Source: Candidatus Bathyarchaeota archaeon | Lineage (GTDB): Archaea > Thermoproteota > Bathyarchaeia > Bathyarchaeales > Bathycorpusculaceae | Direction: 5' to 3' | DNA: 64,000 nucleotides | Assembly: GCA_963826715.1 (NCBI GenBank) | Contig: CAWGYA010000008.1 | Location: 320,001-384,000 of the forward strand | In this document: piece after piece, positions 1 to 16,481 of the stretch | Position numbering within the stretch: position 1 is the stretch's first letter | How the letters are laid out: every line of letters starts with the position of its first letter | Notes under the pieces: model-generated | What the model saw: the letters and a program-made list of their open reading frames with translations, nothing else | What the model was told of the DNA's origin: nothing | Database searches by the model: none | Position numbers and translations under genes: made by a program

Positions 1-1793
1 AAGGCGAAATAGTGCTATTTATTGATGAAATCCACACTCTGGTAGGCGCTGGCGCCAGCGAAGGAGCTATGGACGCAGCCAACATCTTAAAACCAGCGTT
101 AGCCAGAGGTGAACTACGTGCAATCGGTGCAACAACTCTCAAAGAATACCAAAAGTATTTTGAAAAAGACAAAGCACTGGAAAGACGTTTCCAGCCTGTC
201 ATGGTTAACGAGCCCGACACGTTAGATGCAATCTCGATCCTTAGAGGCTTAAAAGAACGCTATGAAGTCTTCCACCACGTAAGAATAAAAGATGAAGCCA
301 TAATCGCCGCAGTCGAACTTTCTCAGCGATACATCTCAGACAGGTTCCTTCCCGACAAAGCAATAGACTTGATAGATGAAGCCGCCTCAAAGCTCCGATT
401 AGAAATCAACTCCGCACCTGTAGAACTCGAAACTATCGAGCGTAAAATTCGACAACTCGAAATCGAGCGGGAAGCCATAAAACGGGAAAAAGACGAAACC
501 AAACTTAAAGCACTCAACCATGAAATCGCTAACCTTAGTGAAGAAAGAAATAAACTCAAAGCCCGCTGGCAAGCTGAAAAAGACATTGTCGAACAAATTC
601 AATCCAAAAAAAATGAAATCGAAAAATTAAGATTCGAAGATGAAGATGCAAACCGCAAAGGAGAATTAGGAAAAATTGCAGAAATCAGGTACGGCAAAAT
701 TCCTGAAGCTTCAAAAACCATCGAAGACCTAAAAAAGAAACTTTCCGAAATACAAAAGGGCTCTCCACTCATCAACGAAGAAGTTGACGCTGAAGAAATA
801 GCAGAAGTAGTTTCGCATTGGACCGGAATCCCAGTCAGTAGAATGCTTCAAAGCGAAAAACAGAAGCTGCTTAACCTTGAAACCGAACTTCACATACGGG
901 TAATCGGGCAGGATGAAGCGGTCCAAGCGGTCTCAGAAGCCATCAGACGAAGTCGCGCAGGGTTACAGGATCCCAAACGTCCCATAGGATCATTCATCTT
1001 TTTAGGCACCACCGGTGTAGGAAAAACTGAGTTAGCTAAAGCCTTGGCTGAATACCTCTTCAACAACGAAAACAATATGATTAGAATTGATATGTCTGAG
1101 TATCAGGAACGCCATACAGTTTCACGATTGGTAGGCGCTCCTCCAGGATACGTTGGATATGAAGAAAGTGGACAACTAACCGAGGCTGTACGTAGGAAAC
1201 CTTATGCTGTTGTTCTGCTTGACGAAATAGAAAAAGCGCACCCCGATGTTTTCAACATCTTACTCCAAGTCCTTGATGATGGTAGATTGACAGATAATAA
1301 AGGGCGCACAGTAGATTTCAAAAATACAATTATCATAATGACATCAAATCTTGGTTCACATCTCATACAGGAAAACCTAGAGAAAATAACACCGGATACA
1401 AGAGAAAAAATTTGGAACCAAACAAAAGAACAGGTATTTGACTTATTGAAAAAAACTATCAAACCAGAATTCCTAAATCGAATCGACGAAATAATAATGT
1501 TTCAACCGTTAAATGAGGAAGAAATCAAAAAAATAGTCAAAAACCAGATCAAAAACGTCCAGAAAATGCTTGAAAAAAATAATGTTAAAATTGACATCAC
1601 AAAGAAAGCCATAAACTACATCGCCAAAGTAGGGTTTGACCCCCAGTTCGGCGCACGACCAATAAAACGCGTGATCCAAAAAACCATTCTCAATGAACTC
1701 TCAAAGATAATACTAGAGGAGAAAGTCAACAAAGATGCAGTTATTGTGGTTGATGAGCAAAACGGATCGTTAGTGTTCAAAAATAAACCATAA
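1..1793 (+). CDS. clpB: ATP-dependent chaperone ClpB, 5' end outside the window
   Basis: NBD1 Walker B LFIDEIH and KPALARGEL; coiled-coil M domain; NBD2 [15 protein letters not shown] and FGARP. The frame is open to the window edge. Confidence 0.97.
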
Positions 1794-1858
1794 CACTTGC
1801 TTACAAGCAAAAAATTAAAGCGTTAAACCGGCTATTGACCCATTAGGTTGAGGACTGA

Positions 1859-2428
1859 TTGATAACGTACGTTACTAAAGCAGACGGCTCCAGACAACCC
1901 TTTGACAAAGAAAAAGTTGTGCAGACATGTCTCCGTATGGGTGCACCTTACGAGGTCGCAATTTTAGTTGCGGAGGCAAAACATCACCTTGCATACCACG
2001 CTTTAACAGGGCTTGATGAGAGCCGCATAGCAAGAGCCATAATAGAAGATCTAACAGAAGGCTATTTGCGGGGCACAACCACTTTAAAAATTGACCGAGC
2101 TATGATAGTTACCAACACTATATATTCCGAGCATGCGAAAATCTACGGTGGTTGCCGCGATATTTTATTGGTTGGTTGGGAATCACCAAAGGGCTTTGGG
2201 CTTAGAGAAACCGTTGAAAAACACAAGCTTTACCCTCTGAGTTGCTTGAAAGGAGTAAATAAAGAAACACGACTTAAGTTGGTCGAAGCTGGCATAGTGC
2301 TCATTAGGCAGTTGCTTGAGCAAGACAGCAGATACATAGAGCGACACATCCACTTGTCTCATGAAAACGTTCTATCTATAATGGAAAAAGCGCGACACAC
2401 CACCGAAACACTATGGCAAAAAACGTAG
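1859..2428 (+). CDS. ATP-cone / Mrr-like restriction endonuclease family protein, apparently with an internal deletion
   Basis: The N-terminus YVTKADGSRQPFDKEKV is the start of an ATP cone. It jumps directly to EAKHH...IVTN...S..A..Y, the C-terminal half of an Mrr-type nuclease. Confidence 0.6.
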   Translation: MITYVTKADGSRQPFDKEKVVQTCLRMGAPYEVAILVAEAKHHLAYHALTGLDESRIARAIIEDLTEGYLRGTTTLKIDRAMIVTNTIYSEHAKIYGGCRDILLVGWESPKGFGLRETVEKHKLYPLSCLKGVNKETRLKLVEAGIVLIRQLLEQDSRYIERHIHLSHENVLSIMEKARHTTETLWQKT

Positions 2429-2517
2429 GTTACTCAAAGAAGAGAGGGATTGCGTTTCGGCCATAAACCCCAAAAAATAAATATCAACTCATTGTTTGTC
2501 TATCGATTGATGAATAC

Positions 2518-2940
2518 ATGGGTATAGAGATCTTGGTTTTCATTTTGCTCTCCGTTACCCTTGAATGTGGCATGGGGATTCTCTACGGCGTTGCAGTCGG
2601 CTACGATCCATGGCTTGTTTTTCCAATGGCGATAGTAATAAATTTCTTAGCGATATTCGCAGCTATTTTTGTGGTAGATAGACTGCTATCGTGGAGGCAA
2701 GGCGTCAAAGTATGGATTGAAAGAAGACTCACAAGAGGTCAAAAACTCATAGATAAGTATGGTGCCGTTGGAATCGTAATGGGCGTTGTTGTTCTCTCTC
2801 CAATACAGTTGGCGATAGTAGGCAGACTGATAGGAATTAAACCCAGTAAACTCTACCCCGCCCTCTTCTGCGCCATTGTCTTGGTAGCGACGGCTTATCT
2901 AGCATTAGCACTTGGCATCTTCAAAATTCTGCTATCTTAA
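2518..2940 (+). CDS. Small multi-pass membrane protein (small multidrug-export/DedA-like)
   Basis: About 4 hydrophobic segments and an IDKYG.VG motif. Confidence 0.6.
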   Translation: MGIEILVFILLSVTLECGMGILYGVAVGYDPWLVFPMAIVINFLAIFAAIFVVDRLLSWRQGVKVWIERRLTRGQKLIDKYGAVGIVMGVVVLSPIQLAIVGRLIGIKPSKLYPALFCAIVLVATAYLALALGIFKILLS

Positions 2941-3106
2941 AAGAGCCAAGGCAACAAGAGGGACCTAAACCATTAAACAGAATAAAAAAACAAGTTGGAA
3001 ATTACTAAGGGCATTCGCATACTCTTAGGGCTCAAAGTTGTATCCGCAACCTTTTTTTGCAAATATTGTTAAGCAACTTATCTTAAAATAGACTTAAGGC
3101 GAAAAC

Positions 3107-3806
3107 GTGACACAAAAGAATAAAGCTATAGTATCAATAGTTGGCTTAATCATTCCCGCTTCTTTGTTGTATTTATCATTTCTATCTACATTAGAAAATG
3201 AAAAACACGTTCAAGAAATGGCAAGTCTCATGGAGAAGATAGAGGTTAATTCAGTTTCTTATAACGAAGCCAATTTGACAGTAACCATAAATTGTACTAA
3301 AGGCTCAAATGATGCTACTGTTTGCGCTCTAACCGATATCATAATTAGAAACTTCCAAAAACAGCTTGAAATCATTCCTTCTCCAAGCAATTTGATCATA
3401 AATTTACCTACAATCCTTAAGCTTCAACTCTAAGAAACTTTGCCCTCAGAGATATACGAACTTCAGATTCGTACAGTCAAAGGATCAAGTTTTAATTACT
3501 ACAATTTTAACATTGGTAACTTCGTTGATCCTCAGCAAAAAATTGAAGTAAAAGAAATTGGTCTATAATCAAACTCAAAATGTTCTTTTAATGTATTGCA
3601 GCAGGATTTATGATAGAACAAGTCTATTTGTTGTCGTCAAGGATACTTACGGGTCACCAGTTGCCACATATGGAGACCCAATTCGCTCCCAAATATCTAA
3701 TGATGATACTTTGCTTACATTAAGGGTTGATCAATTGCTAAGCTCTGGTGAATACAGCGCATATATTGTAACAGAAAAAGGAGCAATCAAAAAATTTAGC
3801 ATATAA
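3107..3806 (+). pseudogene. Membrane-anchored protein with two repeated beta-rich (pilin/Ig-like) domains, disrupted
   Basis: N-terminal TM segment. The in-frame TAA at 3431-3433 is followed by ETLPSEIYELQIRTVKGS...QKIEVKEI, then a frameshift near 3558 into the second repeat. Repeat pairs: KIEVNSVSYN / KIEVKEI-VYN and YELQIRTVKG / YSAYIVTEKG. Confidence 0.6.
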
Positions 3807-3888
3807 TTTTCAAAACAAAAAATTCCGTGACAATTTAGTCAGCAACTAAAACCTATTTTAGCTTGCCGCTAATTATCATAATCCGATC

Positions 3889-4275
3889 TCAGAATGCACC
3901 CACTGCGTTAGGCATATTAGGAGTTACTTGTTGAGTAATATCCCAATACTCTACTAGTTTGTCTCTTTCGAAGCTAAAGAGCTGCATTTGCCTGAGACCG
4001 CCTTGATCTGGTTTGGTTTTGTCATTAAAGAGCTCGGTATGTAATGCAACCAAGTCTTTTTCCTCAATAGCCTGCTTTATTGTAAATTCTGCATTTGGGT
4101 ACTGACCTTTGCCTTCTTTGTTTGTGCCATCCATGGCTTGTATTAGGGTTTCAATATTTCTTGAGATGTAAGGGTTATGGGTTTTGCATGAGGGCAAGAA
4201 ATATTTCAAGCCGTCACTGAATTTGCCTGTTAAACCGAGGTTTATAAAAGCTATTGCTATTTGCTTGTGATCCAT
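3889..4275 (-). CDS. SnoaL-like / NTF2-fold protein
   Basis: HNP motif, DLVALH, and the C-terminal F....KLVEYWD pattern. Confidence 0.8.
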   Translation of the reverse strand: MDHKQIAIAFINLGLTGKFSDGLKYFLPSCKTHNPYISRNIETLIQAMDGTNKEGKGQYPNAEFTIKQAIEEKDLVALHTELFNDKTKPDQGGLRQMQLFSFERDKLVEYWDITQQVTPNMPNAVGAF

Positions 4276-4601
4276 AAAAATTCTTCAAGAACTATAATTT
4301 GCTCTTTGATAATAACCATCCGTTGAAGTCTACAGACATACACAACAACTTTTTGAAGACATTCCGTCAGTTAGCTCATTGTCAGAACATAAAAAATACG
4401 ATAAATAGTTTTGAGGTTGATTACTCTATGTGCCCAACCTGCGACAGACGTTTCTCATACAGTGCATACAAAGCAGCGTTACTTTCTTGAAAAAACATCC
4501 TGAAAAGGGTTTTTGCAGCTAGATTGCCCATATTCCTCATACGAGGAGTTCCAGGCTAACTGACTTCCCTGCGCCTTTTACCTAGGCTTCTTATAAGATA
4601 G

Positions 4602-4760
4602 TTATTGAGATTTAGGAGGCGTGTCTTTGTTGATCCATGTTTTTATTGCTTCTTGGACCGCTTTGGATAAATCACCTTTTTTGCCTCCGAATCGTTCAAC
4701 GGTTTTTAGTCTTAGTTGCATTTCTATTTCATCTGTGATGTCAACATTGATGCGGCCCAA
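4602..4760 (-). CDS. Small ribbon-helix-helix DNA-binding protein, 52 aa (not in the ORF track)
   Basis: Manual translation: MGRINVDITDEIEMQLRLKTVERFGGKKGDLSKAVQEAIKTWINKDTPPKSQ, an archaeal RHH pattern. Confidence 0.8.
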   Translation of the reverse strand: MGRINVDITDEIEMQLRLKTVERFGGKKGDLSKAVQEAIKTWINKDTPPKSQ

Positions 4761-5067
4761 TTTTCTTCACTTATTTTTTGCTAGTTACATATTGTTGTAA
4801 TAAGCGAGCAGCCATTTTGTTTTTTTCGTCATAATTTGTTTCATGTGTTATCCCTGCGGTTTCGCTTATTCACATTAGCACATATACGCATACACACTTA
4901 TAAGTGTATGTGTTTAAGTGAGCAAAACCCCGTGCATCCTCCAACGTACACCAATCATTGAGTCAAGTAAAAACTATCTTTTTGAGGTGCTTCAGGAACT
5001 GTTTCAGTTTTGTTTCAGCCAACTACTATACAAGCTTATGACCATAGTAGTATATGTTGATAAACAA

Positions 5068-5348
5068 ATGACAAACACAAAAATAATATTCGCTCTTGTC
5101 GCGGTTGCGGCATTGACTCTAGCCGCATTTGGAGTGGCGGCAGCTCAAATAGGCCAGAATCAAACAGTTCTCGGGGAACCCCCGAACACTGCAGTTCCAA
5201 CCCAAGGCTTTTGGGGATGCTCGGCAATTGCTTTGGCTATGGAGCCGGTCAGTCATATGATGCCCAATACGTTGCCCCACCAGTAGTTTCTGGCAATCAA
5301 GCTGCCATACCCTACCAAGGCGGTTACGGACCCTGCTGGGCACGATAA
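5068..5348 (+). pseudogene. Small secreted Gly/Tyr/Cys-rich protein with a single frameshift
   Basis: Signal peptide MTNTKIIFALVAVAALTLAAFGVAAA. A 1-nt loss near 5219 (GFWG-TG-) shifts the frame to LGNCFGYGAGQSY...GGYGPCWAR*. Confidence 0.55.
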
Positions 5349-5417
5349 ACAACAAATAACCCTTTTTTTAAGTTTCCCAAATTTTGAAGATAATCTGAAG
5401 TAAAACACGTTTTAGGC

Positions 5418-5453
5418 AAAGCATATTGCGTGGACCAAGTAGGATTCAAACCC
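5418..5453 (-). repeat. Degenerate copy of the tRNA-Ala 3' end plus trailer (old att-like site)
   Basis: aaagcatattgcgtggaccaagtaggattcaaaccc compared with aaagcatgttgaagtggaccgggggggatttgaaccc at 10172-10208. Confidence 0.65.
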
Positions 5454-5526
5454 TTGTAGGGCTCAGGATTTCACTTGCAAAATTTCTCTTTTCTTTGAAA
5501 CAATAAACAAGAACAAAGCAGAAAAA

Positions 5527-5706
5527 TTATCCTAAAGACCTTTTCGGACACTTCATTCCATGAGGTGTCTTATACGTGTCATACAATGCTCCAACAGTTG
5601 CGTCCGACTTCATTCCAAGATTTTCTTGAACTGCTTTTCCGCGAATACAATTGATAAATAGAGCATTTCTTCTCTTTTTACTCCATTTACCAGGCATTCT
5701 CATCAT
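5527..5706 (-). CDS. Small basic hypothetical protein, 59 aa (not in the ORF track)
   Basis: MMRMPGKWSKKRRNALFINCIRGK...CPKRSLG*, with an A-tract and ccttttat TATA-like element about 30 nt upstream. Confidence 0.4.
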   Translation of the reverse strand: MMRMPGKWSKKRRNALFINCIRGKAVQENLGMKSDATVGALYDTYKTPHGMKCPKRSLG

Positions 5707-5839
5707 CTCTCTAAATTACTCAGTTTAAAATAAATAAAAGGTTTTTTTATTAGACCCCCGAGTGGGGCAGTCAAAGAAACTAAAAAATGGGTTCAGAATT
5801 GCTTGAGATCTAAAAGTTCAGACGTATCTCTTCTGAGCT

Positions 5840-6121
5840 TTACCCGAATTTTGCGAGCACTTCCCGTCCGAGGTCAGTTATTTCGACAGCATAAAAATCG
5901 TAAGGTCCAAATTTCTTTGATGACTCAGGATTGTCAATTAGCTTGGATTTTAAAAGATGCCTTACTGCATCGTTGAGACCTTCTGGCATCAAACCTGTCT
6001 TTTGATGTAAAAGATCCACCTTCACTAGCAGACCTTTCTCAAATTGAGATAGGGCTACAAGAACCCGCTTAGCTGATTGGTCAATCATATCAAAATCGTC
6101 TTGTTCAAAATCTTCAACCAT
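5840..6121 (-). CDS. Small winged-helix protein
   Basis: LHQKTGL.PEGLNDAVRHL...LI and VEITDLGRE wHTH pattern; the start is probably the ATG at 6121. Confidence 0.65.
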   Translation of the reverse strand: MVEDFEQDDFDMIDQSAKRVLVALSQFEKGLLVKVDLLHQKTGLMPEGLNDAVRHLLKSKLIDNPESSKKFGPYDFYAVEITDLGREVLAKFG

Positions 6122-6258
6122 ACAAAACACCTAAATCTAACTATAGCAATCTTTGCATAAAAACCATTTGAAACGCCCGTCTGAGCAAAGATAGTTCTGA
6201 CCTTGAATTAACAGTTCTATCCGAGTGGAAGTCTTTGGAACGGGCTTTCGATAAAAAC

Positions 6259-6570
6259 TTAACTTTTCGATTTTTTGACAGCCATGGCGCGTTCGTTGCC
6301 TGTGGTGTTCACGGTCCATTCGAGCGTGTCTCCTGGCTTGAGTTTGAGAAAAACGGCTATAGCTTCTAGGTTAGGCATAGTGTAAGTTCCAACTTCAGCA
6401 AGCCCCAAATCTAAACCAATCTTAGTTGTTAAGCCATCCATAAATTGTACAACAATCAAGAAACCAAAGCAGGAAGAAAGCCACTTTGAATTAATGACTG
6501 GTGTCTTAATTAGGTCTTCACTCAGAAACATCCTCATGGCTTTGCCTCTCCTTCTTAATGAATACTGCAT
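6259..6570 (-). pseudogene. Chimeric ORF: DUF5658-like membrane N-terminal part fused to an AbrB/MazE-like C-terminal part
   Basis: QFMDGLTTKIGLDLGLAEV (DUF5658-type motif) is followed abruptly by EAIAVFLKLKPGDTLEW (AbrB-type motif lacking its N-terminal strand). Confidence 0.45.
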
Positions 6571-6996
6571 AGTTTACGGTATATTTGATACTCCAAATAT
6601 CATAATATCCAGCTAAAATCAAAAAAACGAACTTTGCAATTTACTCTGCATTCGGGCAATAAGGCCTTCCAAAATCTGGAGATGACTTATTTTCTCGGGT
6701 CAATCGGAGCCAGACCTTATTGTCCAATCATCGCGGGCATTGTTTGGGGCAGTATCGAAATAGCTATTAAACTCAAAAGTGACTTCAGAGTAGGTTTACC
6801 TTATGATTTTTGAAGAAGAAGACGATGATTGCTGTTGCGATGAAGATTGCGACTGCGAAGATGAAGAATAAACATCTCTTTTCCTTTTTTTATTGCCTGC
6901 CAAATCATTGATTCAATGTATAAACCTTTCATTAGAGGCAAAATAGTAGAAGTCAGCTTCTGGAAACTAAAACATAAAAGGACCGGGAATCCCGAC

Positions 6997-7032
6997 AAAG
7001 CATGTTTGAAGTGGACCGGGGGATTTGAACCC
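6997..7032 (-). repeat. Direct repeat of the tRNA-Ala 3' end plus 14-nt trailer (att-like)
   Basis: aaagcatgtttgaagtggaccgggggatttgaaccc differs from 10172-10208 only in homopolymer lengths. Confidence 0.9.
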
Positions 7033-7092
7033 AACTCTTAGTGGAGATATCACTCGGAGATTCACCATCATTGAAATTTTTGATCGCCTCAA

Positions 7093-8253
7093 TCATTCAA
7101 TCACTGCTGATCCGCCTTGCCATTGAGATATACGAAATATAACAAACTCAGCCGGCTTCACTGGAGCAACACCGATCAACATTATTAATCTTCCATTGTC
7201 TATATCATCTTGCGTCATTGTGTTACGATCGCATTTCACGAAAAAAGCTTGTTCTGAAGTTGTTCCCATAAGAGCCCCGTCTTTCCAGACAGTTATCAAA
7301 AATTGTGATACAGCTTGCTTTACCCTTGCCCAAAGTCGCTCATTATTAGGTTCAAAAACAACCCATTTGGTTCCCTCTTCAATCGATTCTTCAAGGTACA
7401 AAAACAAGCGCCGAAGGTTGATATATTTCCAAACGGGGTCATTTGAAGTTGTTCGAGCGCCCCACACACGGAAGCCTCGACCGCTAAATTCTCGCAAACA
7501 GTTTACCCCAAGAGGATTTAGAATTTCTTGTTGAGCTCGAGAGATTTGTTGTTCCGGACCGAGAACCCCTTCTATGACTTCATTGACTGGTGCTTTGTGA
7601 ACTCCGCGTTGCAAATCGTTTCGTGCGTAGATCCCACATATGTGTCCGCTGGGTGGGATGCACAAAATTTCTTCGGTATCAGGGTGCCGGATTTTTATCC
7701 ATGGATAATACAATGCAGCATACGATGAGTTGTATAGAGACCGCTGCGTCTGAATCGCGTCCAGACTTGCACATTTTTTTGAGTCAAGCACAGCAAACCG
7801 ATTCTTTAGGTTTTCACAATGCTCAATCATAGCATTATGAATTTTCTGGGTTATTCCACTAGGAATTGCTAAGATTTTGATTTCGTCAACTTGATTCAAC
7901 GCCCAAAGCCCAGTTCTCTGGCTTGGTTCACTGAAGTTTTTGCCTATAATAGTTTCATCGGAAACCACGCTATCTGTGGCTGTAACACGATTTATGTAGA
8001 CTCTTTGACCACCGTTCTGAAAAAACCCTTCGACAGCATGGGGCAAATAACGGTAATCACCATAACTTGTGTCCAAATAACCACCGAATAATCTTTGAAA
8101 TTCGGAAAAACTTGTAACAAGTGTGGGTTGGTTGAGTGGACCTTTCTGAGTTAAACCCACCATGCCTGTTGTACTTGTGCTTTTTCTTTCGATAGGTTTT
8201 GCACCTATTTCTATTTCTTCAATGTAAACTTTGGGTGACAAATATTCTGGAAT
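7093..8253 (-). CDS. Contractile tail sheath protein (eCIS/phage type, short form)
   Basis: PEYLSPKVYIEE N-terminus, GFFQNGG, YAALYYPW, PPSGH, RGVHKAP, GVNCLR.F..RG.RVWGART, WVVFEPN, APVKPAEFVIFRI. The family-type N-terminus begins at an ATT at 8253; the ORF track uses TTG 8241. Confidence 0.95.
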   Translation of the reverse strand: MPEYLSPKVYIEEIEIGAKPIERKSTSTTGMVGLTQKGPLNQPTLVTSFSEFQRLFGGYLDTSYGDYRYLPHAVEGFFQNGGQRVYINRVTATDSVVSDETIIGKNFSEPSQRTGLWALNQVDEIKILAIPSGITQKIHNAMIEHCENLKNRFAVLDSKKCASLDAIQTQRSLYNSSYAALYYPWIKIRHPDTEEILCIPPSGHICGIYARNDLQRGVHKAPVNEVIEGVLGPEQQISRAQQEILNPLGVNCLREFSGRGFRVWGARTTSNDPVWKYINLRRLFLYLEESIEEGTKWVVFEPNNERLWARVKQAVSQFLITVWKDGALMGTTSEQAFFVKCDRNTMTQDDIDNGRLIMLIGVAPVKPAEFVIFRISQWQGGSAVIE

Positions 8254-8284
8254 TGCCTATTCCTCTGGTTATGCTATGTGAGTT

Positions 8285-8380
8285 TTTCTTATAAAATGTA
8301 GCTTAAATTTAAGCGGGCGCTTTTAGAATCTGTCCCGATATCTTGGACTGTATTAATCGATAACGATAAATGTTAAACTA
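8285..8380. promoter_or_regulatory. Divergent sheath/tube promoter region with a 14-bp palindrome
   Basis: TTTATAA on the minus strand at 8289-8295; perfect palindrome gcttaaatttaagc at 8301-8314; TATA-like gttaaa near 8372. Confidence 0.5.
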
Positions 8381-8406
8381 CTCATAAAATATTGGGAGCT
8401 GATTTA

Positions 8407-8919
8407 ATGCCGGAGTTTAGTGTTAATGCAAATCGTTTTGATCCATACAAGAACTTTAAATTCAGAATTAAGTGGGATGGCAAATATGTCGCTGGTTTGA
8501 GCAAAATGTCAGCTTTAAAACGAACCACTGAGGTAGTTAAACATCGATCTGGTGGAGATCCAAGTTCAAGCAGAAAGTCTCCAGGTCGCACCGAGTATGA
8601 GGCAATCACTTTAGAACGTGGAGTCACTCATGATTTGGAGTTTGAAAACTGGGCTAACAAGGTATGGAACTTTGGTGCTGGATTGGGCGGTGAAGTATCC
8701 CTTAAGGATTTTCGCAAGGATATAATAATTGAAATCTACAATGAAGCAGGACAAATGGCAATAGCCTATAAAATTTATCGTTGTTGGGTTTCGGAATACC
8801 AAGCACTGCCAGAGTTAGATGCTAACTCAAACGCTGTTGCTATTCAGAGAATAAAGTTGGAAAATGAGGGTTGGGAAAGAGACACCGATGTCACTGAGCC
8901 CACTGAACCTTCAATTTAG
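8407..8919 (+). CDS. Tail tube protein, T4 gp19-like (eCIS Afp1/5 type)
   Basis: RFDPYKNFKFRIKWDG, RKSPGRTEYEAITLERG, RKDI.IE.YNEAG, YKIYRCWVSEY, LDANSNAVAI. Confidence 0.95.
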   Translation: MPEFSVNANRFDPYKNFKFRIKWDGKYVAGLSKMSALKRTTEVVKHRSGGDPSSSRKSPGRTEYEAITLERGVTHDLEFENWANKVWNFGAGLGGEVSLKDFRKDIIIEIYNEAGQMAIAYKIYRCWVSEYQALPELDANSNAVAIQRIKLENEGWERDTDVTEPTEPSI

Positions 8920-8955
8920 CCTTCAATTTTCCGGTTAATTCTGGAGAATGCCTTC

Positions 8956-10104
8956 TTGGTTCCACTAATTTCAAGCCGATCCAAAACTGTTAAAGGAGCG
9001 TTAGTTTTAGACAGGTCTACTTCAAAGTCTTCCGTCGACGATCTTGATCCTCTGAGCTTTATTTTTCAATACAATCCTGAGATACTCACTCACACGTTTT
9101 TCTCTTCAGACTGCGAAGAAGTAGCAAGGCAGGAAAAGGGGCAGAGAGCTAAAGGCAAAATCGTTGAATCAATAAACTTGAACTTAGAACTCGATGCAAT
9201 CGATCCGCTTATACAACCAAATCTACACCAAGAAATTGATGAATATGGCCTTCATCCAAGCCTCGCCATTCTTGAATCAATCATGCTCTCTCAAAACGCC
9301 ACATCATCTATTGTTCTCTTTACGTGGGGTCCCAATCGGTCAATTCCTGTTTCAATAGAAAACATGAGAATTTTAGAGGAGGCTTTTGATATCAAGCTAA
9401 ACCCAATTCGGGCAAAGATTGAACTTGCTATGAGAGTACTTGATATCTCGGAATTTAGAAAAGGTTCAAAGGGTTACACCCTTTGTCTACTTCACTCAGA
9501 TCGAAGAAATTTCTTCATAAAAAAACGCGTCTACGGAAGTCCATTCAATATGTCATTTGCGACAAAAATTGTTCCTCAACACAGCTGGAAAGATTTAGTT
9601 ATACACGTTAATAAGAAAGAACAAATACGCAAAATATGCAATTACGCAAAAAATAACCCTAAAACTTCTGAAACTCGGGGCTTTGACAAACACTCTCAAC
9701 GAAAGGGTCTCAATATTCTGTTTTTAGGTCCATCTGAGTCTGGAAAAACTATGGTGGCTGAAGTCATCGCCAGTGAATTGAAACTTGATTTGTTCAAAAT
9801 TGATCTTTCGAGGGTTGTCAGTAAGTATATTGGGGAGACAGAGAAGAATCTGAATAGAATTTTTAAAGATTCAGAAGATTCTGATGCAGTTCTGTTTTTC
9901 GACGAAGCTGATGCTTTATTCGGGAAAAGTAGTGAAGCAAAAGATACTCATGACAGGTATGACAATATTGAAGTCAACTATTTGCTACATAAATTGGACG
10001 AACACCAAGGAATCGTTATTCTCGCCAGCCGGGGGAAAGTTGAGGAAGCATTCGTGAAACGGATGAATTTCATCGTAGAGTTTCCATCTCTAAACGGAAA
10101 TTAA
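8956..10104 (+). CDS. Fusion of a CIS tube-like (Afp7/tube-initiator type) domain and an Afp15/Pvc15-like AAA ATPase core
   Basis: N half: FQYNPE.LT, LELDA.D, G.HP.LA.LE, LFTWG..R..PV, EEAFD..LNPIRAK. C half: SWKDLV, GPSESGKT, IDLSRVVSKYIGETEKNL, LFFDEADALFGK, HDRYDNIEVNYLL. Confidence 0.85.
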   Translation: MVPLISSRSKTVKGALVLDRSTSKSSVDDLDPLSFIFQYNPEILTHTFFSSDCEEVARQEKGQRAKGKIVESINLNLELDAIDPLIQPNLHQEIDEYGLHPSLAILESIMLSQNATSSIVLFTWGPNRSIPVSIENMRILEEAFDIKLNPIRAKIELAMRVLDISEFRKGSKGYTLCLLHSDRRNFFIKKRVYGSPFNMSFATKIVPQHSWKDLVIHVNKKEQIRKICNYAKNNPKTSETRGFDKHSQRKGLNILFLGPSESGKTMVAEVIASELKLDLFKIDLSRVVSKYIGETEKNLNRIFKDSEDSDAVLFFDEADALFGKSSEAKDTHDRYDNIEVNYLLHKLDEHQGIVILASRGKVEEAFVKRMNFIVEFPSLNGN

Positions 10105-10185
10105 CCCTCGAGATAATTTTTCCTTAGCTAATGGGGAATTAGCCTTGCAAAATAGGACTGGGGTTTGTTGAAAAGCATGTTGAAG

Positions 10186-10259
10186 TGGACCGGGGGGGAT
10201 TTGAACCCCCGACCTCTTGAGTGCAAGTCAAGCGTTCATACCAGCTGAACTACCGGCCC
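10186..10259 (-). tRNA. tRNA-Ala(TGC)
   Basis: GGGCCGG/CCGGTCC acceptor stem with G3:U70; anticodon arm cttga-cttgcac-tcaag; T arm gggggttcaaatccccc; no encoded CCA. Confidence 0.97.
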
Positions 10260-10604
10260 GTGCTTGCCAATTGATGCATCTCTTTGATATTTAGGTTTTG
10301 CCACCAAAAATCTCAACACATGCAAAATTCAGGGGATAAACAAATAAAAAAAGAAAATTAGTCGTTAAGGTTTGTTGGTTTAGTTCGGTTTTTTGGGTGT
10401 CACGGAAGCGCTTCTCTCATCGTATTTGCCTCAGAAAACTTTCTATTGGGATCAAGTTTGAATGGAGCCGCCTTCTATATCATTGAATAGAAAACTTGTA
10501 CGAAATTTTTTGCAGCCTTGCTGGAATAGGATTATTAATAGAACCCAAGGTTGATTTTAAAACGTTATATCCCAAAATGTATCCAATATGTTGGGAGACA
10601 AAAC

Positions 10605-11090
10605 TTGGATTTAAAAACTGTTAAAATCACACCACCACCAGAATGCAACATCATTTTGGGTATGGCACATTTTATAAAAACTGCTGAAGATCTATACGAG
10701 GCTTTGGTTAATGCGGTACCTAACATTAAATTTGGTGTGGGTTTCTGTGAAAGCAGCGGACCCTGCCTTGTACGCAATGAAGACAACGATAAGGAACTAC
10801 AGCTTCTCGCGGCCGAAAAAGCCTTTGAAATCAGCTGTGGACACAGCTTCATCATCTACCTCAAAAACGCGTACCCTCTAAACGTTCTCGACAAAATCAA
10901 AAAGGTGCCTGAAGTTTGCACTATCTACGCCGCAACAGCTAATCCGCTGGAAGTGCTGGTGGCAGAAACAGAGCAAGGCAGAGGCATAATCGGCGTAATA
11001 GACGGCTACAAAAGCAAAGGCATAGAGACAGAGAACGATAAAGTGGAGCGAAGAGGCTTTCTGCGAAAAATAGGCTACAAACTCGGCTGA
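10605..11090 (+). CDS. Adenosine-specific kinase / DUF355 (COG1839) family protein
   Basis: NIILG.AHFIKT.EDLYEAL, FCESSGPCLVR, AATANP, RGIIGVIDG; probable TTG start at 10605. Confidence 0.9.
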   Translation: MDLKTVKITPPPECNIILGMAHFIKTAEDLYEALVNAVPNIKFGVGFCESSGPCLVRNEDNDKELQLLAAEKAFEISCGHSFIIYLKNAYPLNVLDKIKKVPEVCTIYAATANPLEVLVAETEQGRGIIGVIDGYKSKGIETENDKVERRGFLRKIGYKLG

Positions 11091-12076
11091 GCTGCTAATT
11101 GTTGGGCGATTATGCTTTCTAACAAGGACGGATCAATGTTTCCACCAGTAATCTCCAAAACAACTGTTTTTCCCTCAAATTCTTTACTATTTTCAAGCAG
11201 CATGGCAACACCAGCTACACCTGAGCCCTCCACTACTTGCCCTTCATATTTGCATAACAAATAGACAGCTCGTCTAATGGACTCTTCCGAAACTAACATG
11301 ACTCTGTCAACATACTGCTGAATAATAGGGAAGGTTATGGAGCCTGGCTCTATACCGCCAGATAGACCTTCAGCAATGGTTGTTGGTTCATGTCTGTGAG
11401 GGGGGATAATTCTGCCGGCTTTTATTGACTCATACATAATTGGTACAGCTCGAGACTGCACACCGATAACTTGTATTGAAGGCTTGAGTGATTTAGTGGC
11501 TATACTGATACCTGAGATCAACCCACCACCTCCAACAGGAACCACAACTACATCCGTGTCTGGTTGATCCTGAATAATTTCTAAACCCGCCGTTCCATGC
11601 CCCGCAACAATTAAAGGGTCATTGTAGGGAGAAATGTAGAGTCGTCCCTCTTCACGGGCTAACTGCTTAGCCTTCACCTCAGCCTCAGGATAAGTCTCAC
11701 CGAACAACAGAAGCTCCGCACCAAACCGCCTTATTCCTTCCACCTTAATTGTGGGCGTATTTGTTGGAACAACTATTTTTGTGGAAAAACCAAGCTTTTT
11801 TCCTCCAAAAGCTACGGCCTGCCCATGATTACCAGCAGAAGCCGTTACAACTCCACCGGCTTTTTCTTGGGGCGTTAAATTTTGAAGTTTGTTTATAACA
11901 CCCCTTATTTTAAAAGAATGTGTAACCTGCAGATTATCTAGTTTAAGATAGATCTCGGCGTGACAGAGGTCACTAAGAAAAATCGAACGCAAAAGAGGAG
12001 TATGTTTGGCATAATCGGATATTGCGACTTTTGCATTTTGAATGTCTCGAAGGTTCACCATTAATTCTTCACCCAA
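11075..12076 (-). CDS. PLP-dependent threonine/serine dehydratase
   Basis: SFKIRG lysine motif, ASAGNHGQ, VPVGGGGL, TGGNID. Confidence 0.93.
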   Translation of the reverse strand: MGEELMVNLRDIQNAKVAISDYAKHTPLLRSIFLSDLCHAEIYLKLDNLQVTHSFKIRGVINKLQNLTPQEKAGGVVTASAGNHGQAVAFGGKKLGFSTKIVVPTNTPTIKVEGIRRFGAELLLFGETYPEAEVKAKQLAREEGRLYISPYNDPLIVAGHGTAGLEIIQDQPDTDVVVVPVGGGGLISGISIATKSLKPSIQVIGVQSRAVPIMYESIKAGRIIPPHRHEPTTIAEGLSGGIEPGSITFPIIQQYVDRVMLVSEESIRRAVYLLCKYEGQVVEGSGVAGVAMLLENSKEFEGKTVVLEITGGNIDPSLLESIIAQQLAAQPSL

Positions 12077-12165
12077 AACTGTTGGCGTGTCTATTGTGAA
12101 TTAGTTACCATAAACTATTTTAGGTTACGCAAGATCAAACCTTAAAACAGGATTGTTGATATTTT

Positions 12166-13017
12166 ATGGCGTCATTAGAGAGAAACATGGCTCAACTTCA
12201 AGCTTATCGTGAACAACAAAACAAAGAAAGCCAAGAACTCAAAGAACGCATGGAAAAAATAAAACATAAAATCGCCGTTATAAGCGGCAAAGGCGGCGTA
12301 GGCAAAAGCACAGTAACTGTAAACCTCGCCACAGCATTCGCCATGAAAGGACATAAGGTCGGTATATTGGACGCCGACATCCACGGCCCAAGCGTACCAA
12401 GGCTTCTTGGTCTTGAGGGAAAACAGGTCAAAGCTACCCCCGCAGGAGCCTTCCCCGTTGAGGGACCACTAAACATGAAGGTTATGTCAATTGACTTCTT
12501 CTTAGCAGACCAAGCCCCTGCTATTTGGCGTGGACCGCTAAAGATGCGAGCTATTCGCCAATTTCTCGTTGACATCGTCTGGGGAGAACTTGATTTCTTA
12601 TTCATAGATTTGCCCCCAGGCACAGGCGATGAGCCTTTAAGTATCGCACAACTTCTGCCCGAACTTGACGGGGTCGTAATCGTTACTATGCCCTCACAGC
12701 TTTCAAGCAACATCGTAAAGAAAGCTATAACCTTTGCAGAAACTCTGCATATGCCCACCATAGGGGTTGTCGAAAATATGAGTGGCTTTATCTGCTCTCA
12801 CTGTGGCAAGAAAACCGAAATTTTCGGCTCAGGTGGAGGCGAAAAAATGTCAAAAGAAACTGGTGTAGCGTTCCTAGGCAGCATACCCATCGACCCCAAA
12901 GTCGGGGTTGACTCAGACATGGGAAAGCCATTTGTTCTCTCACAAAAGGATTCTGCTGCAACAAAAGCATTTATGGAAATTGTGGCAAAAGTCCAAAAAT
13001 ATATTCAGAACAAATAA
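12166..13017 (+). CDS. Mrp/NBP35 Fe-S cluster carrier ATPase
   Basis: SGKGGVGKS, DADIHGPS, IWRGP, DLPPGTGD, ENMS.F.C..C. Confidence 0.95.
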   Translation: MASLERNMAQLQAYREQQNKESQELKERMEKIKHKIAVISGKGGVGKSTVTVNLATAFAMKGHKVGILDADIHGPSVPRLLGLEGKQVKATPAGAFPVEGPLNMKVMSIDFFLADQAPAIWRGPLKMRAIRQFLVDIVWGELDFLFIDLPPGTGDEPLSIAQLLPELDGVVIVTMPSQLSSNIVKKAITFAETLHMPTIGVVENMSGFICSHCGKKTEIFGSGGGEKMSKETGVAFLGSIPIDPKVGVDSDMGKPFVLSQKDSAATKAFMEIVAKVQKYIQNK

Positions 13018-13070
13018 AAATTGAAAGGGTTTGAGAGCTAAACTCTCTACTTTATTTTTGGTCGTAATGG

Positions 13071-13361
13071 TTATGCTTTCGTTAGAGTAATCTCTATCGT
13101 GGAAACCATTCTAGACCTATTTTCGCCTTCTCTTGGCGGCATCTCTGCGGTTCCTATTGCGATTTTGGTGACTTTGAGGTCTTTAATGAAGCGGCTTCTG
13201 GTGATTTCAGCGACATCAACAGCTGTAGTGATTGCTTGACCTCTTGCTTTAAGGGTTATTTCTTTTTGGGACCCGGAAGAGAACGCGGTTATAATTGCGA
13301 GCACATAGCTCATGGGTGGTTTATTTCCAACAAATATTACGTCACTAGCTTTTTCAGACAT
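13071..13361 (-). CDS. albA: DNA/RNA-binding protein Alba
   Basis: VGNKPPMSYVLA, LKARGQAITTAVDVAEI, VSTIEITL. Confidence 0.97.
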   Translation of the reverse strand: MSEKASDVIFVGNKPPMSYVLAIITAFSSGSQKEITLKARGQAITTAVDVAEITRSRFIKDLKVTKIAIGTAEMPPREGENRSRMVSTIEITLTKA

Positions 13362-13711
13362 ATGTATTTCACATCTTTTTTTGTATTGTTTGTTTTGCGA
13401 TGTATTAACGTTCCGCTGTGTCCATTTTAGACCACGAAACGTTACTGTTTACTATGCAAACTTCCTTATAAAGAGGATTTCCGATTTCCAAAGCCTAAAA
13501 GCTGATTGTATGGATATTAGTTAATTTATCTATCGAAATAGCTACGTTTTAGTTGTTTTTGCTTCTCAGAATAAACTTGGTTGAAACAGCTCAATTGGCA
13601 ATCGATTGAAGTAAGTTGAAGTAACTTCGCAGTAATTTGGAGTTAAAGAAAAAACGGTATAGTTTTATATCTCATATATGAAGGGAAGAGTAAAAACTGG
13701 AGATCCATTTC

Positions 13712-14482
13712 ATGTCTGTGTCACCCAGCATTAAAGAAATCTTGGCCAGAAGAATAGCAGGAGAAATCACTCTATCAAGCAGACCAGGCACGGCTATGCG
13801 GAAATGGCGGGAACTCTTTGCGGTCTCCCAAATAAACCTCTCTCAAGCCATGGGATTATCCTCTTCTGTCGTCAGCGACTATGAAAGCGGCAGGCGAAAA
13901 AGCCCCGGAGCCAAATTCATCCGTCGATTCGTGTTGTCATTACTGCTGATTGATGAACAGAAAGGCAGCCGCTTCATCCGCGAATTTTCTAAACTTACCA
14001 GTTCACCTAGCATGGCAGTAGTGGATTTACGTGAATTCCCAATACCTGTACGTGCCGAATATTTATGCAAGGCAATCAGTGGCGAAGTGGTAGCTTGCAA
14101 AGACAAATACATCAAAGAAGTTAACGGCTACACAGTTATTGATAGTCGAAAAGCAGTTGAAGCTTACTCTGGACTTGAGTATGCACAGCTTTTCGGCGCC
14201 TCGACGGATCGAGTATTGGTTTTCACCAATGTTGACGTTGGAAGTCTTCCGATGATGATTGTACGAGTCAGCAATCTCAAACCTCGCATAGTAGTTTTCC
14301 ACAAAACACCACCTGATGAAGAAGCTATGCGTATAGCCGAATACGAACAGATACCGATCATCTACTCATCTGCACCTACCGTAGAGTATCTAGTTAAGGC
14401 ACTACGAAAACTCTACCGCATTGCATTACGGGTTAAGTTAGGTAGAAAACGGGTGCGTCCGCCACCACAAATTACTGCTTGA
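13712..14482 (+). CDS. XRE-HTH transcriptional regulator (archaeal COG1709 type)
   Basis: IAGEITLS..PG...RKWRELF, SVVSDYESGRRKSPG, GYTVIDS. Confidence 0.88.
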   Translation: MSVSPSIKEILARRIAGEITLSSRPGTAMRKWRELFAVSQINLSQAMGLSSSVVSDYESGRRKSPGAKFIRRFVLSLLLIDEQKGSRFIREFSKLTSSPSMAVVDLREFPIPVRAEYLCKAISGEVVACKDKYIKEVNGYTVIDSRKAVEAYSGLEYAQLFGASTDRVLVFTNVDVGSLPMMIVRVSNLKPRIVVFHKTPPDEEAMRIAEYEQIPIIYSSAPTVEYLVKALRKLYRIALRVKLGRKRVRPPPQITA

Positions 14483-14691
14483 GCTTTTTTCTTTTCGACA
14501 AAACTTCCACAAAACCATCATCTATGCACTTCACGCAAATAAGTTGATGCTGTTAAGCTCAACATGTCTTAAATTTAGAAAACAGGAGGAATCATCCAAA
14601 AATAGGACTTAATTCAAAAAACACTACTTTTTAAAAGCACAAATAAAGAGAAAAGATGTTAGAGGAGAAACTCGGTGAAATAGATAGTTAG

Positions 14692-14760
14692 CTATTTCTT
14701 TCCAGTTTTTTCTTCATGCTTCTTCTTTTTGGCTGCGTTCTTTTTGGCTAACGAAGGCAT
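14692..14760 (-). CDS. Putative 22-aa lysine-rich micro-protein
   Basis: MPSLAKKNAAKKKKHEEKTGKK*, with a purine-rich gtgggg SD-like element upstream and a T-rich tract downstream. Confidence 0.4.
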   Translation of the reverse strand: MPSLAKKNAAKKKKHEEKTGKK

Positions 14761-15045
14761 AATCTTAACCCCACTTCAATCCTTGATATGAATTACGCAG
14801 CATGCACCCTAAAAGCTTAACTCTTTAACAGTTCTATAAAACTGTAATAATTTGCTGTCCAATTATAATTTGATTTTTTTATTCTATTTCTCACTAAAAC
14901 CACGCACTAAGTGTAAAAATTTTTGCATAGTAAGAATAAAAAACTGGTTTAAAAAATAAACGGAACCTGCAGAGCTAATTGAGGTGCTGATACTTCAATT
15001 AAGCTAATATAATTGTTCCACAGTGCTAAAGCATGTTAGCGTACC

Positions 15046-15492
15046 GTGGAGAGAGTTAGATTGGATGAAATTTTAGAGATACTGGACAAAACTTCCAAGC
15101 GATTCAAGAAAACAGTTGAGCAAACCAAAGAAAACATCTGGAAACAAGCAGCCAAATATGAGCAGCTTCAGCAGTCACCTGAAGCCTCAGAGGATCAGAA
15201 AATAAAAGCTTTCATAAAAAAAACCTTTGAACTAGACCGATTAGAATGGCTGAATTCGCAATTAAGCCTGATATATTCTCTTCAGATTTTCGCCTTCAAA
15301 GTCAAGGTACTCGAGGTTTCTGTGGATAAAATTAATGATGAATTGATAAAGTCTGACGTACTAAAAAGTGGCGAAGAGTTGGAGGGCATCAAAAAGAACA
15401 TTGACGCTCTCAAAATCCTTATGGAAGCCCAGTACGAGTCAATGAAGGAAATTAACGAGTCACAAAACAAAAACTTGGGATATATTCATTAG
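15046..15492 (+). CDS. Coiled-coil hypothetical protein
   Basis: 148-aa charged helical ORF. Confidence 0.7.
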   Translation: MERVRLDEILEILDKTSKRFKKTVEQTKENIWKQAAKYEQLQQSPEASEDQKIKAFIKKTFELDRLEWLNSQLSLIYSLQIFAFKVKVLEVSVDKINDELIKSDVLKSGEELEGIKKNIDALKILMEAQYESMKEINESQNKNLGYIH

Positions 15493-15514
15493 AAATTAAG
15501 ATAATAAAAAAGGC

Positions 15515-15560
15515 AGCTTGGGCCATTCAACCTTAGGGTTGACCGCCTACAGCTTTTTAT
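15515..15560. terminator. Hairpin between convergent genes
   Basis: tcaacc-ttag-ggttga stem within ggc/gcc and agct/agct, flanked by A and T runs. Confidence 0.35.
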
Positions 15561-16481
15561 TTAGAATAATTTTTCCCAGCTTGTAACTAGGTCTAGGACT
15601 TCTTGTCCAGCTTTTCCGCCGTAGCTCTTTAAGCGTTCCCGAGTGTCTTTCTCTGCAATTGCTTTCTTCTGGAATTCTTGCATCTGAGCTGCTTTGTCTG
15701 TGAGGTATAGGATGCCGTCAACACCTGCTCGCGCCATTCGAACGGACACGGTAAGGAGTTCACTTGCTGTGGGTGTTTCTCTTGGATCGTCTCCGGGACC
15801 GATAACATAGAGTGCAATGTTTAACTTGACGTCTTTAAAGAGTTTCTTGAAGTTACGGGTGAGCATTTCCCAATACCAGGGGGTAGCGTAGTTTTTGCTG
15901 AACATAACGACGAGAAATTCGTCGGTTAGTGGGTTGAGGTCATCAAAGTTAACGCCGAAGCGTTCATAGTTGGTGACTGGGTCTGGTAGGACACCAATGT
16001 AGAGTGGTTTCTTTGCTTTGTTGCGTACGCGATCGCTTGTTGCTGTCATGTAGTCTGTGACTTCTTTGCGTCTCCATTCATACCAGGATAAACCGCTTTT
16101 TGCGTGTAGATCTTTACAGCGTGGGCATATGCAGTGGTGGTGTTCAGCGAAGTGTATGCTATTTAGCCAGACACCCTGGCTTTTACGTGCGACATCTTCC
16201 ATGTAGTCTAGTTGTTCTGCTCTGTGTTCTGGTTGGGTTGCGCAGAGAACTTCCCATCGGACGTTGAAGTTGTCATTTGTTCTCCAAGCTGGACCAAGGT
16301 CTGATTGGCTGATCCAGTCTGGATGTAGGCGCGCCGTTACGTTGTCTCCGAAGATTGCAACGTTGCTGTGCATGTCAGCTTTGGGGGGCATTCGTCTGCC
16401 GACTTCAGGTTTTACCCGGAAAAGGTCAAAGTCGAAGCCTGGAACTTTCTTTGCTTCAAACATGTATGTGCCGAATTTCAT
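15561..16481 (-). CDS. Hypothetical TIM-barrel protein, glycoside-hydrolase-like, with a CxCxxC motif
   Basis: HPDW, LC...PE.R, CICPRC, W.EWRR..VT pattern as in GHL10-like proteins; no signal peptide. Confidence 0.55.
   Translation of the reverse strand: MKFGTYMFEAKKVPGFDFDLFRVKPEVGRRMPPKADMHSNVAIFGDNVTARLHPDWISQSDLGPAWRTNDNFNVRWEVLCATQPEHRAEQLDYMEDVARKSQGVWLNSIHFAEHHHCICPRCKDLHAKSGLSWYEWRRKEVTDYMTATSDRVRNKAKKPLYIGVLPDPVTNYERFGVNFDDLNPLTDEFLVVMFSKNYATPWYWEMLTRNFKKLFKDVKLNIALYVIGPGDDPRETPTASELLTVSVRMARAGVDGILYLTDKAAQMQEFQKKAIAEKDTRERLKSYGGKAGQEVLDLVTSWEKLF

Follow-up and report, generated by a model that had tools for sequence, protein, structure and literature searches.

The stretch analysed here, referred to as the window, comprises 64,000 nucleotides (nt) of a Candidatus Bathyarchaeota assembly (GCA_963826715.1, contig CAWGYA010000008.1, positions 320,001 to 384,000), and next to a tRNA-Ala gene it holds a small cassette of three genes related to contractile injection systems (CIS): a tail sheath on the minus strand and, divergent from it on the plus strand, a tail tube followed by a chimera of a tube-initiator-like domain and an AAA domain. 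The three open reading frames (ORFs) are uninterrupted and lie between two direct repeats (Table 1). In the original prediction they had been described as a sheath of about 386 amino acids (aa), a 170-aa tube and a tube-like/AAA fusion, and Pfam bears out these families; the length of the tube holds when it is counted from the ATG at 8407, but the sheath measures 382 aa. The same prediction spoke of two tRNA-Ala direct repeats. The repeat is real, 36 positions being identical between its copies, which also show two small indels, but ARAGORN detects only one tRNA gene, the second member being a 37-nt copy, and Rfam gives nothing except this tRNA above its gathering score between window positions 2400 and 10400. 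The source genome, labelled G000 below, measures 2.64 Mb in 8 contigs, is 96% complete and is not closed. That its owner is an archaeon, as had been supposed, is confirmed by the small-subunit (SSU) rRNA on the contig of the cassette, for which the archaeal model is the best in its clan, and by the genes for Alba and an archaeal-type adenosine kinase inside the window.

Table 1. Features of the cassette and its borders, in window positions (att, attachment site).
Feature	Positions	Strand	Basis or remark
Left direct repeat, att-like	6997-7033		repeats the tRNA-Ala 3' end and the 13 nt downstream of it
3.07-kb cassette common to G000 and G054	7058-10131		blastn
One-domain contractile sheath, 382 aa, TTG start	7093-8241	-	Pfam PF04984 and PF17482
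Divergent sheath/tube spacer, 150 bp	8242-8391		meeting point of two separately occurring units
gp19-type tail tube, 175 aa from TTG, 170 aa from ATG at 8407	8392-8919	+	PF06841
Third ORF, initiator-AAA fusion, 382 aa	8956-10104	+	PF00004; PF19266 below threshold
Fusion N-terminal domain, predicted Afp7/Pvc7-type tube-initiator fold without LysM part	8956-9540	+	AlphaFold2 (AF2) model and Foldseek
Fusion C-terminal domain, Afp15/Pvc15-D2-like classical AAA large subdomain, lidless	9541-10104	+	PF00004
Right direct repeat, att-like, overlapping the tRNA 3' end	10172-10210		
tRNA-Ala (TGC), intact integration target	10185-10259	-	ARAGORN; Rfam RF00005, 70.7 bits

The sheath passes the gathering scores of both Pfam sheath domains (PF04984, 9e-23, 81.4 bits with a cut-off of 31.4; PF17482, 1.3e-19, 70.5 bits with a cut-off of 26.9). 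Its nearest solved relatives by sequence are 9ezm_A (2.2e-119) and 8bky_A (6.8e-114), and it also matches Pvc2 (2.2e-52) and Afp3 (2.9e-50). The tube covers PF06841 from end to end (profile positions 1-134 of 134; 6.8e-46, 155.9 bits with a cut-off of 28.2), matches the tube chains of Afp1 and AlgoCIS as well, and is 67-70% identical to tubes that adjoin standalone initiator genes in other species. Over the whole of G000, the sheath and the gp19-type tube each occur once.

In the third protein, Pfam recognises the AAA domain (PF00004, 5.2e-23), and the CIS_tube family only below its cut-off of 27 (PF19266, 4.7e-4, 20.4-21.1 bits). As a fold search with a model of the full-length protein returned AAA matches only (Cdc48, Rix7, Rpt and Vps4), the N-terminal domain, residues 1-195, was modelled alone with AF2 from an alignment of 81 relatives, which gave a predicted local distance difference test (pLDDT) value of 88.8. 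Against the Protein Data Bank (PDB), Foldseek places baseplate initiator chains at ranks 1 to 9 for this model, with E values from 2.8e-8 to 1e-6. These chains, about 225 aa in length, belong to AlgoCIS (7aeb_M), PVC (6j0n_b and 9qgl_7A), Anabaena (7b5h_AK), Streptomyces (9gtp_M), the cyanophage A-1(L), where they are named 'baseplate-initiators' (8kea_P and 8kea_R), and Afp7 (6rao_G and 6rbk_A). At the level of sequence, PF19266 is matched by 67 of the 81 aligned relatives (best E 1.2e-12), and the profile of the initiator family finds 9rce_H (6.2e-7), 7b5h_AK (0.012) and Afp7 (0.2) among the PDB sequences. The family itself counts 681 representatives at E<=1e-3, mostly standalone proteins of 200-240 aa. 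Pfam finds no LysM match in the fusion, whose AAA domain begins after residue ~195. A complex prediction of the tube with the initiator domain reached a best score of 0.09 with the mark at 0.32, was made without controls, and is used here neither for nor against an interaction.

The AAA half of the fusion is 55-67% identical to the C-terminal AAA domain of those ATPases in complete CIS loci that combine a winged-helix domain (WHD) with AAA; the winged-helix N-domain PF22977 itself has no Pfam match in the fusion. According to the portion of PMC11495950 that deals with Pvc15, its D2 is the active one and has a DEAD Walker B, and by homology the AAA domain of the fusion corresponds to this active D2, the DEAD of Walker B and the pore-loop motif being conserved. 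Together with the missing lid and the eroded motifs detailed below, these comparisons indicate that the third gene joins an initiator ring domain to an AAA domain that is lidless and probably poor in hydrolysis. ATP hydrolysis by this protein seems doubtful, and the AAA part is therefore more likely to serve as an oligomerisation or docking domain. Public data contain further chimeras of CIS proteins, namely AAA with gp25 (P0018 and P0099), AAA with Pvc16_N (P0031), sheath with Pvc16_N (P0288), sheath with AAA (P0102, attributed by its source to Candidatus Bathyarchaeum), and an 840-aa protein with 15 initiator-domain stretches (P0127). The AAA fusions to gp25, cap and sheath suggest that this AAA domain habitually docks on the structural core of tails.

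The original prediction had found no spike, baseplate or cap in the window, an absence that now extends to the genome. Family searches over the whole of G000 gave 0 matches to gp25, Baseplate_J, Phage_GPD, Phage_base_V (VgrG), PAAR and Pvc16_N; the searches for gp25, Baseplate_J, Phage_base_V and Pvc16_N do detect other genomes of the genus, and that for gp25 detects control genomes as well. When all ORFs from five complete CIS loci of the same genus were compared with G000 by tblastn, only the three cassette genes and housekeeping flanks were returned. No tape measure came up in G000 in this comparison, although none of the complete-locus ORFs was individually identified as such and no family search was made for this fast-diverging protein. 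An ordinary split locus, with the missing CIS genes elsewhere in the genome, is not supported by these searches. Capsid and terminase genes are absent from the window, as had been stated, and match only elsewhere in G000, where 2 capsid, 7 terminase and 18 tyrosine-integrase matches were found; HK97-type capsid matches lie near terminase matches at C7:124815-137910 and C5:158662-164721. Judging from these matches, G000 is host to several head-tail provirus-like elements, despite its single sheath and single gp19-type tube.

Whether the layout is unique to one genome had been left to be checked, and it is not. A second species (G054) carries the same cassette with 92.8% nucleotide identity over 3082 blastn columns (window 7058-10131 against 7948-11028 of locus L040), between flanks that are unrelated to those in G000 and without a tRNA. 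The cassette of G054 sits inside a 9.6-kb genome-specific stretch, in which a clean empty site is not definable. The same three genes are found in two further species, G059 and G104, where tube and fusion form a pair (77% nucleotide identity) and a sheath of the same 382-aa type is unlinked, being 49 kb away from the pair in G059 and on a separate contig in G104; the compact cassette occurs only in G000 and G054. In G012, a window-type sheath stands beside a different tube, and an unlinked pair of tube and standalone initiator is present in addition. Homology of the sheath unit to G012 reaches window position 8307, and homology of the tube unit to G059 and G104 begins at 8349-8358. The parts also differ in their closest kin among complete CIS, as the sheath is 58-60% identical to the G101/G063 type versus 33-36% to the G006/G017/G045 type, and the AAA domain 65-67% versus 49-51%, whereas the tube is 28-30% identical to the former and 72-82% to the latter. 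The genes for initiator and ATPase do not adjoin each other in complete loci, with about 10 kb between them in G045, so that the fusion is not the product of a one-step frameshift. This mosaic parentage, taken together with the conserved fusion, argues against a plain deletion derivative, and the simple deletion remnant to which the original prediction had left some room is disfavoured.

The ratios of nonsynonymous to synonymous substitution rates (dN/dS), calculated with the method of Nei and Gojobori (NG86), are 0.16-0.25 for the sheath (5 genomes, all with 382 aa), 0.08-0.16 for the tube (the 4 genomes with a window-type tube, G000, G054, G059 and G104), and 0.27-0.48 for the whole fusion (4 genomes), of which the N-domain gives 0.26-0.57 and the AAA domain 0.28-0.40. 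The ORFs are intact wherever they were examined, in 5 of 5 genomes for the sheath and in 4 of 4 each for the tube and the fusion. By this measure the three cassette genes are under purifying selection: from 0.08 to 0.48, their ratios are not near the value of 1 that had been proposed as the sign of a deletion remnant. Between G000 and G059 dS is 0.38 for the sheath and 0.94 for the tube, an inequality which implies that the two units have different histories. What decay looks like in this genus can be seen on contig C9 of G054, where a complete-type CIS (L046, C9:44000-63999) is pseudogenised, with the wedge and ATPase ORFs fragmented, gp25 split, 3 stops in the tube and 1 stop in the spike, while the cassette of the same genome is intact. 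Other decayed examples are a tube with 5 stops in G048, a tube with 2 stops in G088 and an initiator with 1 stop in G015.

The genus was sampled with 101 genomes. Marker matches were found in 40 of these for the sheath, 46 for the gp19-type tube, 39 for the Pvc16_N cap and 28 for the initiator profile, against 10 for gp25, 7 for Baseplate_J and 13 for Phage_base_V (any of these last three in 14). Sheath and tube occur together in 34 genomes, of which 26 are without gp25, Baseplate_J and Phage_base_V, and each of these 26 has a third part, namely the initiator alone (14 genomes), the cap alone (11) or the two together (1). In 25 of the 26 all three parts are free of stops over their matched stretches. 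Three of the 26 consist of a single contig (G014, G068 and G111), with sheath and tube 480-730 kb apart, and hence missing contigs do not explain the pattern. The 87 genomes that are free of baseplate markers divide into 26 with sheath and tube, 5 with the sheath only, 10 with the tube only, several of these being incomplete or stop-bearing, and 46 with neither. Outside the genus the sheath is rare: a protein query detected it in 0 of 16 further genomes from the order, and the family model in 5 of the 146 genomes of the class that do not belong to the genus. Read against this distribution, the linked form is one particular instance of a pattern found across the genus, that of dispersed three-part sets.

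The cap also occurs alone, as Pvc16_N is matched in 15 genomes without sheath, tube or baseplate marker (examples are G013:C6:25226, G016:C5:505243, G047:C30:26310 and G053:C5:711412; most of those listed are open frames of ~290-320 aa). A solitary sheath of ~360 aa, here called class A, has a conserved chromosomal neighbourhood in at least six species (loci L016-L021, from G002, G008, G001, G010, G014 and G005, respectively), and class-A sheaths at this same site occur with both types of partner, initiator and cap. Their neighbours encode a NUDIX protein, an ABC-type permease, a HerA-like ATPase (DUF87), a 360-aa protein and a family-less protein of 172-182 aa. The HerA-like ATPase and the family-less proteins were considered as hidden partners and rejected, for they are absent from G000, as is the class-A sheath itself. 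In G012 the syntenic class-A sheath is broken, with 1 TAA and its middle part lost (L024, G012:C5:25000-44999, ~9822-10474), and a window-type sheath and tube are intact on another contig; one sheath may have been replaced by another in this genome.

Each of the five relatives examined keeps the neighbourhood of the tRNA-Ala and adenosine kinase genes and has no cassette at that place, and they differ in how long the stretch on the left side of the tRNA is. G001 has an att-like repeat of its own ~1 kb from the tRNA-Ala (L071, G001:C3 14569-14614), which together with the variable left stretch marks the tRNA-Ala site as an insertion hot spot. In G059 the tRNA-Ala 3' end is partially repeated at an unrelated location (C4:738188-738232, 98% identity over 45 nt), and these copies point to repeated integrations that used this att sequence. 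A 27-nt pattern taken from the right repeat has 1 match in the window, versus 0 expected from 100 shuffles, the left repeat being missed because of a 2-nt indel. No integrase was found between the repeats, in window positions 1-16000 or near the cassette of G054, and all 18 matches in G000 lie outside the window. A search for sequencing runs gave five DNA rows from two soil-metagenome studies and no RNA. Contigs from four runs over window positions 5500-11500 show no joint that skips the cassette, and short contigs bridge both of its junctions (for instance 6937-7688 and 9764-10261); these four runs belong to one study and possibly to the source sample, and are taken neither as independent support nor as evidence against mobility.

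To the left of the cassette, the ORFs at 3107, 5068 and 6259 had been held to be broken accessory genes, but a relation to CIS is not borne out by Pfam or by comparison with CIS proteins. As parts of the module, ORFs 3107, 4918/5068 and 6259 were rejected (best Pfam E 0.0011, no similarity to CIS proteins), and so were the regions 4970-5380 and 4467-4928. The former is a dispersed repeat of ~400 bp, with further copies in G000 at C2:30809-31208, C4:20501-20898, C5:36342-36726 and C8:1075757-1076129, and the small ORF from 5068 within it has a signal-peptide-like start and an apparent frameshift after ~50 codons. In the latter, a small gene on the minus strand is ribbon-helix-helix-like, and a corresponding stretch is kept at the nucleotide level a few kb from sheath genes in G012 (L015 14186-14634) and G104 (L056 14800-15256).

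I consider the chances even that the cassette is a selectively kept, baseplate-free assembly module for sheath and tube, without the capacity to inject. The original prediction, that only the polymerising parts and their initiator/ATPase have been retained, is supported in this respect by the recurrence of the layout, the dN/dS values and the empty genome search. In solved CIS, the first ring of the tube is templated by a hexamer of the Afp7 type that is placed on the spike hub. In the cassette, the initiator domain would form a ring to which tube subunits are added in a stack, with the sheath polymerising around this tube. The portion by which an initiator is normally attached to the baseplate would give way to a helix and the AAA large subdomain, which would put six AAA-like domains on the ring face that in a complete CIS touches the hub of spike and baseplate, where they would serve as an integral platform or plug. 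Since gp25, wedge, spike, cap and a recognisable tape measure are lacking, the product should not be a triggerable injector; it would have no trigger, no piercing tip and no control of length, and would be an intracellular baseplate-free sheathed tube or polymer. Possible roles are structural, in storage, in stress-linked lysis, or in interference with tailed viruses or tailocins. In a broader form, to which I give somewhat less than an even chance, the genus has domesticated tail parts as a baseplate-free, non-injecting polymer of sheath, tube and one end-piece, either initiator or cap, which would be inherited vertically as well as on small cassettes, and in the cassette form an initiator ring fused to a pseudo-AAA ring would take the place of the baseplate hub.

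Several observations weigh against this interpretation. The full-length fusions form 8 protein clusters and 8 of 8 end at the same point before the AAA lid, three of them have a degenerate Walker A, and in the fusion of the window an in-frame deletion of 6 nt (2 residues) removes the sensor-1 Asn, which is retained in an orthologue of 88% identity. Between close pairs the dN/dS of the fusion is 0.44-0.48, and a lidless AAA, eroded motifs and ratios up to 0.48 fit a partial relaxation of constraint. The genome G048, which is clearly decayed, counts among the 26 without baseplate markers, and the Fisher p of 2e-9 for the co-occurrence of sheath and tube ignores kinship and is not readable as a probability. 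The sheaths of phage T4 and of type VI secretion systems (T6SS) as a rule require gp25 if they are to begin in the extended form, and a baseplate-free extended sheath is not established. Unlinked partner genes of an unrecognised kind could exist, and the argument from mosaic parentage depends on the lineages sampled, as an unsampled lineage could hold all parts together.

Alternatively, the three genes may be neutral wreckage, functionless last survivors of a decaying CIS or of the tail of a provirus. The lack of any baseplate, spike or cap gene in G000 would fit this view, as would an islet without an integrase, the lidless AAA with its eroded motifs and the sensor-1 deletion in the window copy, and the decay seen elsewhere in the genus (G048, the C9 locus of G054, the tube of G088 and the initiator of G015). 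However, I regard it as quite improbable, as wreckage should not leave all three ORFs intact in every genome examined with ratios of 0.08-0.48, nor the same cassette at two unrelated sites, nor 25 of 26 baseplate-less genomes free of stops in all three parts, and the true decay at C9 of G054 looks quite unlike the cassette. Another explanation, which appears rather unlikely to me, is that the products serve as spare parts in trans, complementing or being mobilised with a complete machine outside the assembly, such as a plasmid or virus left unassembled, or a myovirus or tailocin that infects the host. The cassette does look mobile, with its att repeats and its two sites, the genome is 96% complete and not closed and has head-tail provirus-like regions (2 capsid and 7 terminase matches), and complete CIS are in circulation within the genus, as 14 of the 101 sampled genomes have a baseplate or spike marker. 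Nevertheless, the searches of G000 yielded no baseplate, spike or cap gene, which disfavours in particular the original suggestion that the cassette acts in trans with another CIS of this genome; the baseplate-less pattern is also present in the single-contig genomes G014, G068 and G111, and in G054, the sole genome with both, the complete locus is pseudogenised.

A defensive role was also considered, in which sheath, tube and especially the chimera act as a decoy or poison that would join, cap or derail the tails of infecting contractile-tailed viruses or of incoming tailocins. A variable, tRNA-linked islet would be a fitting location, the chimera couples a domain that nucleates assembly with a degenerate AAA, other structural CIS domains (gp25, cap and sheath) are fused to this AAA in databases, the AAA bears a similarity, though only a generic one, to the defence ATPase IetA, and the capsid and terminase matches indicate a host exposed to tailed viruses. 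Nonetheless I hold this to be unlikely. In PADLOC-DB 2.0 the sheath and the tube have 0 matches, and the fusion shows no more than generic AAA similarity, to IetA, TRIP13 and DolB. An arms race would predict a fast turnover, while the dN/dS of the tube is 0.08-0.10 and the sheath is conserved too; the class-A sheath keeps its conserved chromosomal neighbourhood in at least six species, and with one sheath and one tube in G000, no contractile-tailed provirus is seen there.

If the broader form, that of tail parts domesticated by the genus, is correct, it would represent a new functional class of sheath-tube machine, for instance an intracellular contractile or structural filament, or an antiviral device that poisons assembly. 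To my knowledge, all characterised sheath-tube machines (myovirus tails, tailocins, extracellular CIS (eCIS) and T6SS) have a baseplate as their foundation, by which the sheath is both nucleated and triggered. All parts of the cassette come from known families, and what appears to be new is the recurrent, selected set without a baseplate, and the initiator-AAA fusion. Surveys of CIS reportedly pick their loci by sets of core components and would thus filter out reduced sets. In a literature search no description of a baseplate-free three-part set or of an initiator-AAA fusion was found, though survey locus tables may list partial loci; 'Bathyarchaeia' combined with 'tail sheath' returned nothing, and wording such as baseplate-less or orphan sheath was not met among the papers listed. 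Sheath homologues in Bathyarchaeota and other archaeal assemblies are mentioned in the available portion of PMC9230969 without an analysis of context, and the corresponding portion of PMC12210884 leaves reduced loci unmentioned. Should the parts assemble, they would reveal the capabilities of sheath and tube in the absence of a baseplate, would provide a minimal nucleation system of an initiator ring fused to an AAA-like ring, and would hint that tail-derived polymers have a role in archaeal cell biology or virus defence. The compact cassette of the two species is small enough for direct expression and imaging, and even if no assembly takes place, the locus would still record how CIS loci break up into long-lived fragments.

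Among known systems, the eCIS (Afp, PVC and AlgoCIS) resemble the cassette part by part, its sheath corresponding to Afp2-4, its tube to Afp1, the N-domain of its fusion to Afp7/Pvc7 and the AAA domain to Pvc15 D2/Afp15. It differs from them in that spike, PAAR, gp25, wedge, cap and fibre are lacking, in an initiator that is without the LysM part and is fused to an ATPase domain, in an ATPase without the WHD N-domain, D1 and the lid with sensor 2, and in the divergent arrangement of its genes, as opposed to the single operon of eCIS. ClpV, which recycles the sheath of T6SS, is a two-ring Clp/Hsp100 unfoldase whose N-domain docks on the sheath and which has no tube-like fusion. By analogy, in both cases a special domain at the N-terminus would bring an AAA-type domain to the polymer of sheath and tube, but the AAA of the cassette is single, lidless and eroded in its motifs, so that a role as unfoldase is doubtful.

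The closest solved sheaths are those of the T6SS-like CIS of Halogeometricum borinquense (9EZM) and the CIS of Streptomyces coelicolor (8BKY/9GTP), which represent archaeal and actinobacterial CIS that are anchored in the membrane or cytoplasmic, and are intracellular assemblies. That archaea make use of CIS is apparent from the account of the haloarchaeal system in the accessible part of PMC11566945. These two systems comprise at least 14 structural genes (cis1-16) with a baseplate, in contrast to three genes and no baseplate here, and their sheaths of 534-574 aa contain an extra domain, compared with the 382 aa of the sheath in the window. Within the genus itself, the dispersed pairs of tube and initiator, or of tube and Pvc16 cap, differ from the cassette in that their third part is not fused to AAA and their sheath is unlinked, and identity to the cassette amounts to 67-70% for the tube and 30-39% for the initiator domain; with a distant sheath and no baseplate markers, however, they follow the same three-part logic.

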